Origin: a virus
DNA: 38,284 nucleotides
Virus genome (UHGV): UHGV-0085204
Reading direction: 5' to 3' (one strand)
The notes under the pieces are model-generated. The model had not been told where the DNA came from. It saw only the letters and a list, made by a program, of their open reading frames with translations, and made no database searches. This document shows, in pieces, positions 50-38,284 of the stretch. A program made the translations under genes and the position numbers. Each line of letters begins with the position of its first letter. Positions within the stretch are counted from its first letter, which is position 1.

Positions 50-1210
50 TTACCTAGCATTTAAGTAAACCACGTTCTCCTCTTGTGCCGTATTTGTGCC
101 ATTGCGACTTATAATCGCATCGATTTTGCTCGCGTGCTCGGTGAGATGCCCGGCTGAAAGGTGGGCGTATCTTTGAACCATTTCGAGAGTTTCCCATCCT
201 CCCATCTCTTTAAGCGCAAGAAGAGAGACACCGGACTGAACCAGCCAGCTTGCCCAGGTATGCCTCAGGTCATGGAAGCGGAAGTTGCTAATGCCTGCCC
301 GCTTTAACGCTCCCTTCCATGCCTTGTTGCTGTCGGTTCTCATCTTCCTTACCGCTGCTGTTTTTGTTCCGTCGCTTCGGTAGGCAGGTTTGGTGTGGAC
401 AAATACCCATCTCTTATGGAGCCCCTGCTGTTTTCTTAATATCTGGCATGCGGTTTCGTTAAGAGGAACTCCGATCGCATTGCCAGCTTTTGTTTCATCA
501 GGGTGCATCCATGCCATTTTCTTATCCAGATCGACCTGTGACCACTCAAGGTCTGTAACGTTGGAACGGCGAAGGCCTGTCGTGATTGCAAACATGACCA
601 CAGGGAAGAAATGAGGAGCAATTTCTGCAAACAGGCGCTTCGATTCCTCCTCTGTAAGCCATCTGATTCTTCCATTCTTAACGCGTGGTGTTGATATTTT
701 GGGCGCCCTGTCAAGCCATCCCCATTCAACAGCCATATTGAGAATAGCGCGAAGTATTGCCAGATGCCGCGTCTTCGTTCCTTTGCTTGCCAGCTTTGGT
801 TTATACTCCGGCACTGGCTTGCCAAGCCGCAAACACCTGTCCCGGCTCATTTCCCAGTTCAGGCGATGGCGGCGGTTTTCCATCCCGTCTACCGCCTCCA
901 TTATTTTTTCTGTTGTTATGTCTGAGAGAATGGTTTCTCTGAAGTGCAACATCCAGAACGATATAATGCTCTTGTCATCATCAATGGACTTCTTATCCGA
1001 TTTCTCACGCAGCCACCGTATGCAGGCTTCCTTGAATAGCTTTTTCGGTGATTCCCCGAGATTTTTTACTCTCCACGCTTCTGCTTTCAGACGATCGTGA
1101 AGTTCTTGCGCTTGCCTTTTGTCCGATGTTTCAAGAGAACGTCTAACTCTTGATCCATCTGGCGCGACGAAATCGCAGTGCCACGTGCCACCGCGTAGTT
1201 TGATTGACAT
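50..1210 (-). CDS. int: Tyrosine-type site-specific integrase (P22 Int-like)
   Basis: 386 aa; ATG with AGGAGG RBS upstream; C-terminal HDLRHTWASW and RYAHL motifs typical of tyrosine recombinases; adjacent to tRNA 3' end. Confidence 0.95.
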   Translation of the reverse strand: MSIKLRGGTWHCDFVAPDGSRVRRSLETSDKRQAQELHDRLKAEAWRVKNLGESPKKLFKEACIRWLREKSDKKSIDDDKSIISFWMLHFRETILSDITTEKIMEAVDGMENRRHRLNWEMSRDRCLRLGKPVPEYKPKLASKGTKTRHLAILRAILNMAVEWGWLDRAPKISTPRVKNGRIRWLTEEESKRLFAEIAPHFFPVVMFAITTGLRRSNVTDLEWSQVDLDKKMAWMHPDETKAGNAIGVPLNETACQILRKQQGLHKRWVFVHTKPAYRSDGTKTAAVRKMRTDSNKAWKGALKRAGISNFRFHDLRHTWASWLVQSGVSLLALKEMGGWETLEMVQRYAHLSAGHLTEHASKIDAIISRNGTNTAQEENVVYLNAR

Positions 1211-13643: not shown

Positions 13644-13892
13644 ATGTCGAAGCGGAATATTGCCGCTAAAACACAAGAAGAGCGCGAGAAGGTTAACGTT
13701 GACCTTGCTGTCTCCTGAGTTACCTACAAAGAGCACCTTAATATACCGGTTATTGCCGAAGCGGTGATGCGTGAGCAGCCTGAGCATTTGCGGGACTATT
13801 TTTTGGAGCGGCCACGACATTACCGCGAGCAGAGCATCGCGCTGCCCAAGGCATCCGCTCCTCGACATCTTAAGCAGGAAGGTGAAAAATGA
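13644..13892 (+). pseudogene. Small ORF interrupted by an in-frame TGA (13716-13718); downstream part ends in ATGA overlap with the next gene
   Basis: ATG 13644 ...AVS TGA VTYKEH...MREQPEHL...QEGEK stop at 13890-13892; same frame throughout. Confidence 0.3.
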
Positions 13893-33456: not shown

Positions 33457-35453
33457 TGGCTAAAGCATGGAAAGATGTTATCGCCTCTCCACAGTATCAG
33501 GCGTTAGCACCAGAACAAAAAGCGCAGGCTCAGGAGCAATACTTCAATGAAGTCGTGGCCCCGAAAGCCGGAGAAAATGCAGAGCAGGCTAAGCAAGCTT
33601 TCTATGCTGCCTATCCATTGCCATCTGTGCATCCAGTGGAGACACAACAACCAGTAGCACAGCAACAACCACAGCAAAGTGGATTTATGTCTGATCTTGG
33701 TGAAGCCGTGAAAGAAACTGGTCGCGGACTGGTGCAGGCTGGCGTGAACGTGGCAAACATACCTGCATCAGTTGCCGATGCTGTAACAAGCGCGGCGGCT
33801 TGGGCTGGCGGTAAACTCGGCATTGGCGATGGTACATATCAACCAGCACCACGAGTAACAACGCAGGGATTAGAGCAGGACTTTGGCCTTCAGCAAGGTG
33901 CGCTGACTCCACAAACGACAGAGGGAAGGGTATTTGCTGAAGCATTGCCTTACCTCACTCCTGCTGGCGTTGAGAGAGCGGCGGTACAGGCACCAACACT
34001 TGCTGGTCGAATTGCTCATGGGGCAACTCGCCTTCTAGCAGAAAACGCAGTTGGATCACTTGCTGCAAATAGTGCGAAAGATGATGCGGAAGCACTCGCT
34101 ACCGATTTAGGTGTTGGAGTTCTGGCAGGCGGCGCTATTAACGCTGCTGGACGTGGATTAGGTGCTGCTTATCGTGGCGTTCGTGGTGCTATTGCGCCAG
34201 AAGCGCAGCAGGCTATCAGATTTGCAGAGCGTGAAGGAGTGCCTCTGCACACCACAGACCTGTTACAACCTACTTCCCGCGTCGGAAAAATGGCGCAGAC
34301 TACAGCAGAAAATATCCCTCTGGCTGGAACAAGCGGAATGAGAGCAACGCAACAGGAAGCGAGAAGCCAGTTGGTGCAGAGATTTGCTGATAAATTCGGG
34401 GAGTATGATCCAGCGGTTGTTATTGACAGCCTTAAAGCGAAAACATCAGGAATTCGTCGTGCCGCCGGTAATCGACTGGAGCAGGTTCAGAATGCTATGG
34501 CTGGAGTAAACATTCAGCCTGCGCGAGCAATTCAGCAGATTGATACAGAAATATCTAACCTGCAGAAGCTTGGTAAGGTGGCTGATAACGAGACAATTTC
34601 AAAACTTCAGTCATATCGTGATGAGCTTGTTCGCAATGCTGGCCCTGATGGTCCGGTAAATCTGGATTTGAAGCAATTAAGCGACCTGCGCAGTCAGTTC
34701 AGAATGGACGTGAAGGGTGAGCGACCAGTGTTACCAAACCGTTCCGATGCTGCCATTCAGCGCGTTTACAAGGCGATGACCGACGATATCAATGGTGCCA
34801 TTGGTCAGAATCTTGGCAACGATACTCTCCGTAAATATCAGCAGGCCAATGCCGTCTACGCTGACGAAGCGGCGAAACTAAAGAATACCAGGCTGAAGAA
34901 TGTTCTCATGAAAGGCGACCTGACGCCGGAAGTTGTCAACAACATGCTATTCAGCAAGAACAAATCGGAAATTAAGACGCTGTATAACTCAGTTGGTCGT
35001 GTTGGCAGGGTGCAAATGCGCAATGGCATCATTGGAAAGGCGATGGAGAAATCTGGCGGATCCCCTGACCAGTTCCTTCGGCAGCTTAACATCCTGCAAA
35101 ACCAGACTGGCATCACATTTAAGGGGCAGGACGCTGCTTATCTGAAAGGATTGAAAAATTACCTTCAGTCCACTCAGCAGGCAGCAAAAGCGGCAGTAAC
35201 AACACCAACAGGGCAGCAAACCATCCCGTTCATTATCGGGTATGGGACGGCAATGAACCCGGCGACAACTGGCGCAGCAGTAAGCTACGGACTTCTTACT
35301 CGCGCCTATGAGAGCGAACCATTCAGAAATGCAATGCTCCGAATGGCAAACACCCCACGCGGATCAACAGCGTTTGAGAAAGCCATGCAGCAGGCGCAAA
35401 AGGCCATTAACGCCCTGACTCAGGGTGCCAAGTCTGATGCGTTGTCAGAATAG
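33456..35453 (+). CDS. Ejection protein (P22 gp16-like)
   Basis: 665 aa; last of the three ejection proteins. Confidence 0.8.
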   Translation: MAKAWKDVIASPQYQALAPEQKAQAQEQYFNEVVAPKAGENAEQAKQAFYAAYPLPSVHPVETQQPVAQQQPQQSGFMSDLGEAVKETGRGLVQAGVNVANIPASVADAVTSAAAWAGGKLGIGDGTYQPAPRVTTQGLEQDFGLQQGALTPQTTEGRVFAEALPYLTPAGVERAAVQAPTLAGRIAHGATRLLAENAVGSLAANSAKDDAEALATDLGVGVLAGGAINAAGRGLGAAYRGVRGAIAPEAQQAIRFAEREGVPLHTTDLLQPTSRVGKMAQTTAENIPLAGTSGMRATQQEARSQLVQRFADKFGEYDPAVVIDSLKAKTSGIRRAAGNRLEQVQNAMAGVNIQPARAIQQIDTEISNLQKLGKVADNETISKLQSYRDELVRNAGPDGPVNLDLKQLSDLRSQFRMDVKGERPVLPNRSDAAIQRVYKAMTDDINGAIGQNLGNDTLRKYQQANAVYADEAAKLKNTRLKNVLMKGDLTPEVVNNMLFSKNKSEIKTLYNSVGRVGRVQMRNGIIGKAMEKSGGSPDQFLRQLNILQNQTGITFKGQDAAYLKGLKNYLQSTQQAAKAAVTTPTGQQTIPFIIGYGTAMNPATTGAAVSYGLLTRAYESEPFRNAMLRMANTPRGSTAFEKAMQQAQKAINALTQGAKSDALSE

Positions 35454-35542
35454 CTTCGCAAACACCAGGAACGTGCAAAAACCAAATATGTAGAACGCAA
35501 TATTCAGCATATCTCTTTGCATAAATCCTCCGTAACTGATGG

Positions 35543-35803
35543 TTAGCTGCTGTCTTTTTTATATAGCTCTTTGAGCGTATCAAAGACAATTTTCTTAACC
35601 ATATCAGATTGTTGTTCTGCCATACGCTCTGCATCGTCAATGTAAACTGATGCAGAGCTTTGTTTAGCCAATGATTCTTCAATCGCTGCAATTATCTCTG
35701 AGTTCAGCGACCTGTTATTCATCTTCGCACGCTGCTTAATTTTCGCGTGGAGTTCATGCGGAAGTCTCAAGTGAAACTGCGCCTCGTCGTATTTGCTGTA
35801 CAT
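35543..35803 (-). CDS. mnt: Mnt-like ribbon-helix-helix repressor (immI remnant)
   Basis: 86 aa from ATG 35803; C-terminus NDAERLAEQQSDMVKKIVFDTLKELYKK close to P22 Mnt. Confidence 0.8.
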   Translation of the reverse strand: MYSKYDEAQFHLRLPHELHAKIKQRAKMNNRSLNSEIIAAIEESLAKQSSASVYIDDAERMAEQQSDMVKKIVFDTLKELYKKDSS

Positions 35804-35876
35804 CCTTGATGCCTCACCAGTTGGGTGGAATGGCATCGTAACCTACTGGATAAATACTCAATAGTACCATTTCGGT

Positions 35877-35899
35877 ATGCAATCACATCATGGTTGCAT
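35877..35899. promoter_or_regulatory. Palindromic element ATGCAA-N11-TTGCAT between mnt and tailspike; candidate operator
   Basis: ATGCAATCACATCATGGTTGCAT just upstream of the tailspike RBS. Confidence 0.35.
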
Positions 35900-35924
35900 C
35901 ATATCATTCGTCTGGAGCAATGAA

Positions 35925-38234
35925 ATGTCAGATATCACCGCAAATGTTGTGGTAAGCATGCCTTCGCAACTCTTCACTATGGCGCGTTCTTTTAAAGCTG
36001 TAGCCAATGGCAAAATTTATATCGGTAAAATTGATACTGACCCTGTAAATCCTGAAAACCAGATTCAGGTTTATGTGGAGAACGAAGACGGCTCTCACGT
36101 TCCTGTTTCGCAGCCAATCATCATTAACGCTGCTGGATATCCTGTATATAACGGACAGATTGCCAAATTCGTTACCGTGCAAGGTCATTCGATGGCTGTT
36201 TACGATGCTTATGGGGTGCAGCAGTTCTATTTCCCAAACGTGCTGAAGTATGACCCTGATCAGTTAGAACGGAGACTTTCTTCTGGCAATGGGGCAGATT
36301 ATATAGGATACCCTGGTTATGACGATTTAACCCAATTCCTACACACTACAATAAGAACTATCGAAGAGTTCAGAGAGCCAGGATACACCGACGCACAAAC
36401 ATTTCAGGCTGCGGTGAATTCAGGTAGTGTAAGAATTCCATCTGGAACAACGATTGAAATCATCGGTAATGTTGATATCACAATCCCGGGAGACAGGATT
36501 ATTCTCGTAGAGAATGGTGGAGTCATTAAATCCAATGGTCGATTCACTGCATACGGAGTAAATAACGTCCATTGGATTGTTAACGGATTGGTTGAATGCA
36601 CTGGAATGGTGCCTGCACCTGCAAAATCAGGATGGCCTAACACTGCCGCTGGAACGCAGTCTGGGGATGAACGAGGATTTATCGAGTTCGGCGGTGTTGT
36701 ATTCGCAGGCAACGATGGATTCTGCTACTCAGTAACTGGTAATGGTAGAATACAAGGATACTGGTCAGGAACTCCAAACAATAGCGATCTGGTTAACCAG
36801 GTAAACCGGAAGGGTATAGCTGCATGGAACTGCTCTCGCTTTACAGTTAAAGGCGTTCACATAGACGGATTTGAAGGTGAGCAAGTATACTGGTTCTCTC
36901 GTAACGCCAACAACCGTGATGCGTTATTCGATAGCGTAACCAGTACTAACGCACGATTTAATGCGCTAAACATGAACGTTTATAGCGCAATGTTTAATAT
37001 AGTAATCCGTGATTGTTATACTAACGTTTCCTATAATGGGGTTGAATCATCTGCGGGAGATATAATTAACACAACACATGATGGAAGTGTGAATAGTGGT
37101 ATTCTTTTTGGTCTTGGTACCGGTGGCGGAAACCGGCTTATTGATAGTAATAAAGTCAATGATTGCCTTGGTACTCCGTATTCTTTGCTGTATAACAAAG
37201 ACTATGAGGGGCGCGGATACGTACCTATTGTTACTATCACAAATAACGTGGCCACAAATCCAGCAAACCATTTCATATGTGTATCTGGTATTTCAGGGTT
37301 AAAAATAGAAAACAACATCTGCTATGGTTTAAAGGCAGGGAAGTTTATACAGGCTACTGTAATTGAAGGTGGTGTGATAAAAAACAACACCAACTACAAA
37401 CCTAATGCTGGTACTCAACATGTATATCAAGCAGCTTGTTATTCCGTGTTTGAATCAGATAATGATCTTATAACGTTAGGAGGATCGTATGCTCCAACGA
37501 AATTGTCAGAACGTGCAATAACAGGTGGGTTAGAGTCGAACATCACCGCGTTCGGTATCAGGGAAAACTTTCATGAGTTAAGGGCAGGTAATCCGCAGCT
37601 TGCATCTGGGCCGGAATACAGATTCTCTTATGATACCGGGGTTAACTTTATAGCTGCATCGATAAGTTCGAATCTTATTGCTTATGATGGCGCAGGTGCA
37701 TCTGCCAATCTTTCTTTTAATAACCTGAAGATCAATAACTCCGACGTACTCGGTCAGTCATGGGAGATGACTACTCGCGGTTATTTATCACCCGGTACTG
37801 ATGGCACACAGGATTTTGGAGCTGCAAGCAGGAGAATAAATTCAAGTTATTTCACCGTATCACCTATTGTTTCATCTGACAAATGCTTAAAGCAACAGGA
37901 GGAGTGGCTTGATGATGCTGAGAAACGTGTGGCTTTAAAAATAAAACGGTTACTAAAAAAATATAAGTTAAATGACTCTGTGTTAAAAAAAGGAAATAAT
38001 GCAAGGATTCATATTGGTGTGATTGCTCAAGATGTAAGAGATGCATTCTTATCGGAAAATCTAGACCCTCATTCTTACGCGCTGTTTTGTTATGATGAAT
38101 GGGATGAATCTCCTGAGATTGTAGAAAGAGATGAACATGGAACATTAACAGTCAAACAACCATATATTGCATCTGGAAGCAGATATAGCATCAGGTATGA
38201 TGAATTATTATGCTTTATAATTGCTGCTATTTAG
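35925..38234 (+). CDS. Tailspike: P22 gp9-like head-binding N-terminus, beta-helix-like receptor-binding body, C-terminal intramolecular chaperone (peptidase S74-like) domain
   Basis: ATG 35925 with GGAG RBS; N-terminus [13 protein letters not shown]...[21 protein letters not shown] matches P22 tailspike; C-terminus SSDKCLK...HIGVIAQDV...[16 protein letters not shown] matches the S74 chaperone domain pattern; 3' end AT-rich by eye. Confidence 0.85.
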
Positions 38235-38284
38235 TGTATTAATCATAAAAATGCAGCCATTTTTATAATGTCAATGCTATTGAT

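Follow-up and report, generated by a model that had tools for sequence, protein, structure and literature searches.

There is ample documentation that phages exchange tailspike bodies as modules. The direct architectural precedent for the gene analyzed here is the tailspike of CUS-3 (siaK1; E. coli K1 prophage, CP000711), which on a P22-like prophage follows the same plan of a Head_binding domain, a foreign, receptor-destroying body and a Peptidase_S74 domain. The Head_binding domain of CUS-3 is 90% identical over 125 aa to the present adaptor, and its S74 chaperone is 28% identical to the present one and carries the same S-D-x-x-x-K motif. The two spikes differ in the body. That of CUS-3, a beta-propeller sialidase, has a stalk of its own (End_beta_propel, End_tail_spike) and is directed at the K1 capsule, whereas the present body is an uncharacterised beta-helix with a probable O-antigen target. 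They also differ downstream. In the CUS-3 record the next annotated feature after the tailspike is neuO, whereas here it is a membrane acyltransferase of the Acyl_transf_3 family, not NeuO. The neuO gene encodes an O-acetyltransferase that modifies the polysialic acid receptor of K1. The chimeric plan was thus already known, and the present gene is a real but well-precedented phage mosaic; the general understanding of tailspikes, whose chimeric architecture CUS-3 established, is unchanged by it.

Three further groups of proteins are related to parts of the spike. The tailspikes of P22 (gp9), Sf6 (gp14) and HK620 have in common with it the gene position, the head-binding domain and the right-handed beta-helix fold class, but sequence similarity ends at about residue 115. 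These three spikes trimerise through C-terminal domains of their own and are not known to have a cleavable chaperone. The K1F endosialidase and T5 pb1 (3gw6 and 4uw8; MEROPS S74) bear a homologous chaperone that follows a trimeric stalk at the very C-terminal end, with the catalytic serine, a lysine five residues later and upstream arginine and aspartate sensors all common to the present spike. Unlike in K1F and T5 pb1, the present chaperone belongs to a podovirus tailspike with a beta-helix and a P22 adaptor, in which its cleavage is predicted from sequence. The closest relative over the body, stalk, chaperone and downstream acyltransferase is an E. coli prophage tail fibre of the epsilon15/phiV10/SPN1S type (WP_338918928.1, NZ_CP148445), whose gene is 96% identical to the present one at the nucleotide level overall and 99-100% identical from aa ~240 on. 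Its N-terminal adaptor of ~220 aa differs from the P22-type adaptor of 114 aa found here, so the receptor-binding module is mounted on a different virion.

The window, the whole stretch of viral DNA that was analyzed, is 38,284 nucleotides long. The tailspike gene lies near its 3' end, within an open reading frame spanning 35877-38234. We placed the start at the ATG at 35925 (MSDITANVV...), which is preceded 8 nt upstream by a GGAG Shine-Dalgarno sequence and agrees with the N-termini of the P22 and Sf6 tailspikes, giving a protein of 769 aa followed by a stop codon. The features of the locus are as follows.

35543..35836, minus strand: Arc/Mnt-family repressor gene, divergent and directly 5' of the tailspike gene (open reading frame list; its counterpart in L004-L007 has Pfam Arc and Repressor_Mnt)
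35925..38234, plus strand: tailspike gene (gp9 homologue), 769 aa and stop (open reading frame list, Shine-Dalgarno sequence, Pfam Head_binding and Peptidase_S74)
35925..36266, plus strand: head-binding (virion adaptor) domain, aa 1-114 (PF09008, Sf6 and P22 matches, DNA identity to a P22-like prophage)
36267..36290, plus strand: recombination junction or linker, aa 115-122 (ERRLSSGN), within a 25-nt stretch that aligns to neither parent
36291..36404, plus strand: helical cap at the N-terminal end of the receptor-binding module, aa 123-160 (the AF2 models place helices at aa 135-166)
36405..37484, plus strand: predicted right-handed parallel beta-helix body, aa 161-520, putative domain for O-antigen binding and cleavage (AF2 models compared with solved structures)
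37485..37874, plus strand: C-terminal stalk ahead of the cleavage site, aa 521-650 (aa 564-623 modelled as beta strands, at low monomer confidence; homologous to the pre-chaperone region of 9vvr, 7y5s and 4uw8)
37875..38231, plus strand: Peptidase S74 C-terminal intramolecular chaperone, aa 651-769 (PF13884, solved chaperone homologues, Ser/Lys dyad)
38235..38284, plus strand: 3' flank, the first 50 nt of the spacer towards the acyltransferase gene beyond the window (similarity to the epsilon15-like prophage extends across the stop codon as far as the window end)

The genes upstream encode homologues of the P22 portal, coat, gp4, gp10, gp7, gp20 and gp16, and the gene takes the place of the tailspike gene in a P22-like late operon. 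The exact protein was found on nine public contigs, always 3' of P22-type gp7/gp20/gp16 genes and the Arc/Mnt gene; none of these contigs contains the galF-gnd region. An Rfam scan of both strands of 35000-38284 gave no match, and a promoter scan gave matches at chance level only. We conclude that 35925-38234 encodes the tailspike of a temperate, P22/Sf6-like phage (Lederbergvirus-type) that is integrated in E. coli. An explanation in three modules (adaptor, beta-helix body with stalk, and S74 chaperone), with a swapped cassette that includes the acyltransferase and with an O antigen as target, is in our judgment probably correct as a whole.

The original prediction assigned the first ~110 residues to the P22 capsid-binding domain, and this assignment was confirmed. 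Pfam PF09008 (Head_binding) matched residues 1-113 over the full model (positions 1-113 of 113) with an E-value of 5.2e-67 and 223.6 bits (cutoff 24). Matches to Sf6 gp14 (7sg7, E = 9e-64) and P22 gp9 (E = 2e-49; 8tvr and 2xc1, ~1e-49; 1lkt, 2e-44) covered residues 1-115 only. This adaptor, residues 1-114, would plug the spike trimer into the tail hub.

The DNA changes its affiliation directly behind the adaptor. Up to 36265 it is 98.4% identical to the tailspike gene of another P22-like E. coli prophage and beyond that point unrelated to it; from 36291, shortly ahead of a shared IGYPGYD motif, to the window end it is 96% identical to an epsilon15-like prophage's tail-fibre gene. The crossover thus lies right after the adaptor domain, at the boundary between adaptor and body, and marks a site at which a chaperone-dependent spike can accept a head-binding adaptor. 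Compared with L001, nucleotide identity is 75-81% across 36291-36590 and 99-100% further 3' (aa ~240 to the end), and this jump indicates a second crossover near 36590-36740. The N-terminus of the donor-type protein is epsilon15/phiV10/SPN1S-like (81-90% aa identity), and the same body was found behind four adaptors, namely Head_binding, Tail_spike_N, Phage_T7_tail and the epsilon15 type. These results show that the receptor-binding part was acquired horizontally, as had been proposed from the sequence of the gene.

The shared block runs past the stop codon into the adjoining acyltransferase gene, which lies outside the window and was seen in the source contigs. In all four source contigs shown, two of which (L004 and L007) are identical to the window, an Acyl_transf_3 gene follows 100-155 nt after the stop. 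The P22-like and epsilon15-like prophage types share, at 95% identity, a block of 3141 nt that contains the receptor-binding domain, the chaperone and the acyltransferase. Acyltransferase and body are strictly co-inherited, occurring in exactly the same 8 of 5426 E. coli genomes. The acquired unit is therefore larger than the window shows and includes the acyltransferase gene. Body, stalk, chaperone and acyltransferase together form one low-GC cassette, which epsilon15-like and P22-like prophages have exchanged very recently. With near-identical copies in these two unrelated podovirus lineages, the cassette provides a clean, datable example of temperate phage retargeting. From its Pfam family and its position, the acyltransferase may act on the polysaccharide recognized by the spike; like NeuO of CUS-3 and Oac of Sf6, it would alter that polysaccharide in lysogens, with lysogenic conversion and superinfection exclusion as the outcome.

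The body was examined for a beta-helix, a check that had been suggested with the original prediction, and the AF2 models superposed on solved beta-helix carbohydrate-active proteins. The predicted fold is a right-handed parallel beta-helix of the pectate-lyase-like kind. At the sequence level the body is rare: the helix was matched by only 56 cluster representatives among 1.84 billion proteins, no member of the family carried an informative name, and a family profile run against the PDB returned, for the body, only two weak tailspike matches (E = 0.0045). A Pfam scan of the protein gave no match to a GH or PL family. A tblastn search of 50,697 phage records matched the C-terminal part (stalk and chaperone) only, with no match for aa ~116-540, and so far the body is known only from prophages and metagenomes. 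The body and its short stalk (residues ~123-650) would bind, and probably hydrolyse, an O-antigen polysaccharide.

The distribution of the cassette is suggestive, though not proof, of the E. coli O123/O186 O antigen as the likely receptor. Half of the eight carriers fall among the only 10 of the 5426 E. coli genomes that have an O123/O186-type O-antigen cluster (Fisher p = 4e-10; 1e-7 with one likely clonal pair collapsed), so that the cassette is present in 40% of O123/O186-type genomes against 0.07% of the others. The host of the nearest relative of the present allele (CP148445, ~100% identical from aa 240) is of the O123/O186 type. In the NCBI naming, one homologue with 84% identity belongs to Salmonella enterica, and the O123/O186 O antigen is structurally related to Salmonella enterica O58. 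An independent, large-scale survey associated one prophage tailspike cluster with E. coli O123 and O186 and Salmonella O58 (PMC10370184); we liken that cluster to the present family by this unusual pairing of E. coli with Salmonella, which the membership of the family repeats. The earlier expectation of a polysaccharide other than the Salmonella O antigen was thus right insofar as the target is not the O antigen of P22, but an O antigen is nonetheless the most promising candidate, and one related to Salmonella O58.

These associations might instead reflect the shared ancestry of chicken-associated strains, with another O antigen or surface glycan as the receptor. The other four carriers (CP148426, CP148461, CP148463 and CP158447) lack the O123/O186 cluster, and one of these, CS6L, has a clearly different O-antigen locus with an rfbBC/glf-type cluster. 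Moreover, all eight carriers came from poultry and are therefore not independent samples. Against such an origin stand the enrichment of the cassette in O123/O186-type genomes, the host of the nearest allele and the matching species pair in the literature, and we regard a different receptor as a substantial possibility, but not the favored one. The gene nominates a putative depolymerase and a candidate receptor (O123/O186) for serotype-specific diagnostics or phage engineering. Its practical value is modest, and it gives a testable lead on the split between O123 and O186. The O-antigen gene clusters of these two serogroups are 98-99.9% identical, which leaves the serological distinction between them without a known chromosomal basis (PMC4732683). 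A far-reaching version, in which the body founds a new endoglycosidase family for the O123/O186/O58 O antigen (L-QuiNAcyl, alanyl-acylated Qui4N) and the linked acyltransferase is the factor that separates O186 from O123, is speculative and we consider it doubtful.

The candidate active-site residues of the body that we propose are E254, D288, E319 and E374. Across relatives down to 24% identity, three glutamates are invariant and one aspartate is nearly so, and E254, D288 and E319 follow one another at intervals of 31-34 residues. The acidic catalytic residues of the P22 and HK620 tailspikes have a similar spacing. The beta-helix, however, matched a non-enzymatic adhesin (PfbA) about as well as it matched hydrolases, lyases and epimerases, a result compatible with more than one chemistry or with no catalysis at all. 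The body could accordingly be a module for binding alone, or one with a non-hydrolytic chemistry (lyase or esterase), rather than an endoglycosidase. Both the conserved acidic residues and their resemblance in spacing to the P22 and HK620 sites argue against this reading. The sugars named for O123 in the literature consulted, which are named sugars and not the full repeat unit, are L-QuiNAc(yl), GlcNAc and acylated Qui4N, all amino or deoxy sugars with uronic acid unmentioned among them, and this argues against beta-elimination. A binding-only or non-hydrolytic body thus appears unlikely, if by no means negligible, and a hydrolytic body is the reading that we prefer.

The third module was identified through PF13884 (Peptidase_S74), which matched residues 651-708 with 24.9 bits in a search with the single sequence. 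Since this score is marginal (cutoff 22), confidence in the assignment rests on profile and residue evidence. In phmmer searches, the protein matched the solved chaperones 3gw6 (9e-12), 4uw8 (1e-11) and 3gud (9e-11), and the family profile improved these matches to 2e-26, 7.5e-26 and 7e-30, respectively; altogether it reached six solved chaperone-bearing proteins at E-values of about 1e-26 to 1e-39. A Pfam census of the family showed S74 matches in 35 of 41 members. Ser651 (37875-37877) aligns with the position mutated to alanine in the uncleavable variants 3gw6 and 4uw8, and Lys656 (37890-37892) aligns with the lysine of both; the corresponding dyad in the K1F endosialidase is Ser911/Lys916. 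Both residues were invariant in all 36 relatives that have the chaperone domain. These results bear out the C-terminal S74 chaperone that had been recognized originally, and the domain search proposed at that time found it.

In T5 pb1, the catalytic residues are Ser1264 and Lys1269, Arg1250 and Asp1239 act as folding-sensor residues, and the scissile bond is Thr1263-Ser1264, N-terminal to the catalytic serine, as is also reported for K1F (PMC4690869). In the present spike, Arg637 aligns with Arg1250 (kept in 29 of 41 family members) and Asp626 with Asp1239 (kept in 32 of 41). Because the cut precedes the catalytic serine in both T5 pb1 and K1F, the predicted cut here is S650|S651. Of the autocleavage previously placed at SS|DKCLK, the involvement of the conserved serine stood but the position of the cut did not: by analogy, the released fragment would be 119 aa long (651-769), one residue more than the 118 aa that SS|DK would give. 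The chaperone would nucleate trimerisation and folding of the stalk and would then cut itself off at Ser650|Ser651 through the Ser651/Lys656 dyad, with Arg637 and Asp626 licensing cleavage only once the trimer is correctly folded, and the mature spike would be ~650 aa. Autoproteolytic release of the C-terminal domain is what these homologies suggest. The domain might alternatively be kept in the mature spike, either because it has degenerated and no longer cleaves or because it serves in binding at the distal end, a reading to which the marginal single-sequence Pfam score and the low confidence of the monomer AF2 model around the cleavage site (aa 627-646) lend something. The dyad and both sensor residues are all present and conserved, however, and the family profile matches the six solved proteins at about 1e-26 or better, which makes retention quite improbable.

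The idea that the body is a diverged P22-type endorhamnosidase can be dismissed with near certainty, in keeping with the original view that the remainder of the protein is unlike that enzyme: P22 gp9 aligns to residues 1-115 only, with no sequence similarity of the P22 gp9 or Sf6 chains past residue 115 even with the family profile, structure-based identity is 9-12% and dozens of unrelated beta-helix enzymes score higher, gp9 lacks an S74 domain, and the DNA of the body is common to epsilon15-like, not P22-like, prophages.

Base composition varied along the locus. The 3' end is AT-rich, as had been noted originally, with a GC content of 0.345 over residues 652-769, compared with 0.424 in the body and 0.473 in the whole window.

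The tailspike gene lies in a P22/Sf6-like setting, with homologues of the portal, coat, gp4, gp10, gp7, gp20 and gp16 genes upstream and an Arc/Mnt-family gene divergent from it, an arrangement like that of the P22 immI region. L006, a related contig, has an additional 161-aa gene between the Arc/Mnt-family gene and gp16. ATG 35925 was preferred as the start codon, with GGAG 8 nt upstream and an N-terminus (MSDITANVV...) collinear with those of the P22 and Sf6 tailspikes, which gives a product of 769 aa. An Rfam scan of both strands of the tailspike region found no family match, and the antisense ORFs there were short, with nothing notable.

Features of the prophage (window positions unless a contig is named)
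1-53: tRNA 3' end and att core (GAAGGTCGTAGGTTCGACTCCTATTATCGGCACCATTTAAATCAATAAGTTAC), opening the window and adjoining the integrase gene
50-1210, minus strand: integrase gene, beside the tRNA 3' end and att core
35543-35836, minus strand: repressor gene of the Arc/Mnt ribbon-helix-helix family, divergently oriented to the tailspike gene and lying after the gp16 homologue
35877-38234, plus strand: tailspike ORF, from the ORF list
12413-13537 of L004/L005, beyond the window end: Acyl_transf_3 gene, from Pfam

The head-binding domain occupies residues 1-113, which gave a full-length Pfam Head_binding match (223.6 bits; cutoff 24) and matched the solved head-binding domains of Sf6 gp14 (E 9e-64) and P22 gp9 (E ~1e-49), confirming the ~110-residue P22 capsid-binding N-terminus of the original prediction. 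The claim that the remainder is not of P22 type also held, as the P22 and Sf6 chains showed no alignment past residue 115 and the P22-type body was absent from the matches of a family-profile search. The AT-rich 3' end was likewise found, the GC content of 0.345 over residues 652-769 lying below the 0.424 of the body, the 0.436 of the head-binding domain and the 0.473 of the window. The observation behind the original prediction was thus real, and its interpretation was largely right.

Horizontal acquisition of the body, which had been proposed, was demonstrated at the nucleotide level by a junction between two prophage types. L003, another P22-like E. coli prophage, was 98.4% identical to the window from upstream of the tailspike gene to 36265 and unrelated beyond. 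The body is shared with a tail-fibre protein of L001, an epsilon15-like E. coli prophage, the first ~200 aa of which are the adaptor of the epsilon15/phiV10/SPN1S tailspikes (81-90% amino acid identity). The 25-nt gap between the P22-like and epsilon15-like similarities codes for ERRLSSGN, and a shared IGYPGYD motif follows directly. Nucleotide identity to L001 was 75-81% over 36291-36590, which encodes residues 123-222, 95% over 36591-36740 and 99-100% thereafter; by residue number, the 99-100% level holds from residue ~240 onwards to the C-terminus. This step shows that a second crossover, also very recent, took place within the beta-helix, with a mosaic boundary within 36291-36740. Against L002, conservation was lowest over 36441-36890 (66-73%), a stretch that may form the part of the groove setting specificity. 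Within its family the body is mounted on four virion adaptors, namely Head_binding (7 members), Tail_spike_N (PF18668; 7), Phage_T7_tail (4) and the epsilon15 type, and it was not found in any isolated phage among 50,697 records.

The body family is small, with 42 clusters in an indexed search of 5.8 billion proteins and 56 representatives in an exhaustive search of 1.84 billion; distant members contain Pfam Beta_helix and NosD. Two AlphaFold2 models were built from a 41-sequence alignment, covering the full-length protein (pLDDT 79) and residues 123-651 (pLDDT 83), respectively, and both contained a beta-strand stack at about residues 150-510 with pLDDT >90. All relatives down to 24% identity keep E254, E319 and E374, and nearly all keep D288. 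Intervals of 31-34 residues separate E254, D288 and E319, and the catalytic acids of the P22 and HK620 spikes lie at about the same rung spacing. Conservation and this spacing are an indication that E254, D288, E319 and E374 constitute a putative glycosidase active site.

The predicted C-terminal S74 chaperone was confirmed. The Pfam Peptidase_S74 match (residues 651-708; 24.9 bits versus a cutoff of 22) is marginal taken alone, but the further evidence is strong. A phmmer search with the last 169 aa matched the solved chaperones of K1F endosialidase (3gw6, 9e-12), T5 pb1 (4uw8, 1e-11) and phi29 gp12 (3gud, 9e-11), and the family profile matched them at 2e-26, 7.5e-26 and 7e-30, respectively. 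In pairwise alignments with K1F and T5, Ser651 aligned with the Ala of the crystallised non-cleaving Ser-to-Ala mutants and Lys656 with the conserved Lys. Of 41 relatives of the body, 36 possess the C-terminal domain, and every one of these has both Ser651 and Lys656. His696, Gly698 and Ala701 are each kept in 36 sequences, and 35 of the 41 relatives matched Peptidase_S74 singly. In T5, Ser1264 is activated by Lys1269, and Arg1250 of the neighbouring chain and Asp1239 act as a sensor that allows cleavage only once the trimeric stalk has folded (PMC4690869). The aligned residues of the spike, Arg637 and Asp626, are kept in 29 and 32 of the 41 relatives, respectively. The T5 scissile bond is Thr1263-Ser1264, so that the catalytic Ser departs with the chaperone, as in K1F; in phi29 the Ser was modelled, less convincingly, on the mature side (PMC4690869). 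Because the T5 and K1F bonds precede the catalytic Ser, we placed the cut at Ser650-Ser651, one residue earlier than the proposed SS-DK site. Cleavage there would yield a mature spike of ~650 aa and a released fragment of 119 aa.

Nine public contigs encode the exact spike protein, among them L004 and L007, which match the final 12.4 kb of the window at 100% identity. An Acyl_transf_3 gene (356-374 aa; Pfam E 3.7e-28; GC 0.345) lies outside the window in each of the four contigs compared, beginning 100-155 nt past the tailspike stop. The block common to the epsilon15-like prophage spans 3141 nt, from spike residue 123 nearly to the acyltransferase end, and among 5426 complete E. coli genomes the eight with the acyltransferase are exactly the eight with the body. 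The acyltransferase gene is split in L001 into two ORFs of 738 and 381 nt and therefore may be inactivated there. The gene product is likely an O-antigen acyltransferase for lysogenic conversion.

A prophage tailspike survey linked one cluster, possibly that of this spike, to E. coli O123 and O186 and Salmonella enterica O58, with a common backbone (PMC10370184). L-QuiNAc(yl), GlcNAc and an alanyl-acylated Qui4N are constituents of the O123 antigen, a relative of Salmonella O58 (PMC7685785). By NCBI source name, one body-family member (P0006; 84% identical) is from Salmonella enterica and another (88% identical) from Citrobacter freundii. Counting against an O123/O186 receptor, the O123/O186 gene cluster is missing from four of the eight carrier genomes, the O locus of the carrier CS6L is clearly different, and all carriers were isolated from poultry. 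We consider the O123/O186 O antigen the likeliest candidate receptor, at somewhat better than even chances. Because the O123 and O186 gene clusters are 98-99.9% identical, the antigens being cross-reacting (PMC4732683), the prophage acyltransferase is a plausible candidate source of the difference between them.

The architecture of the spike is of an already known kind. The nearest known parallel is found in the K1 prophage CUS-3, whose tailspike combines Head_binding (90% identical to that of the present spike), endosialidase domains and Peptidase_S74 and is followed by neuO. The neuO product is an acetyltransferase modifying the K1 capsule, which the CUS-3 spike degrades. The layout is alike, but the present body is different and uncharacterised, and the acyltransferase is of another kind. 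It is well known that phages of different morphotypes exchange tailspike bodies; one example is the solved tailspike of the myovirus Det7, which has been described as podoviral. Added here are the exact junctions, the donor lineage, an exchange unit that includes the acyltransferase outside the window, the corrected cut position and the candidate receptor.

A near-identical copy of the att core lies ~230 nt past the acyltransferase in L004 (about 13770-13830), and this tRNA-3'-end repeat is the expected attL/attR pair. An ARAGORN scan of the right end yielded no complete tRNA, which is what a partial duplicate would give. The second core implies that the prophage runs ~1.5 kb past the window end at 38284, so that the window lacks the last gene and attR and divides the cassette. 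The tailspike-acyltransferase spacer contains no terminator-like site; at L004 12356-12383 it has a sigma-70-like site, its -10 extended by TG, with a predicted start at about window 38280, promoter counts overall being at chance level. A terminator-like hairpin with a 13-bp stem directly follows the acyltransferase (L004 13568-13599). What adjoins the prophage on its tailspike-acyltransferase side differs from host to host: a P4-like satellite with integrase, Psu, Ogr/Delta and primase at L005 13973-22310, a second integrase at L006 13625-14782 and, in both L004 and L007, the region of the ecp/mat fimbrial operon.
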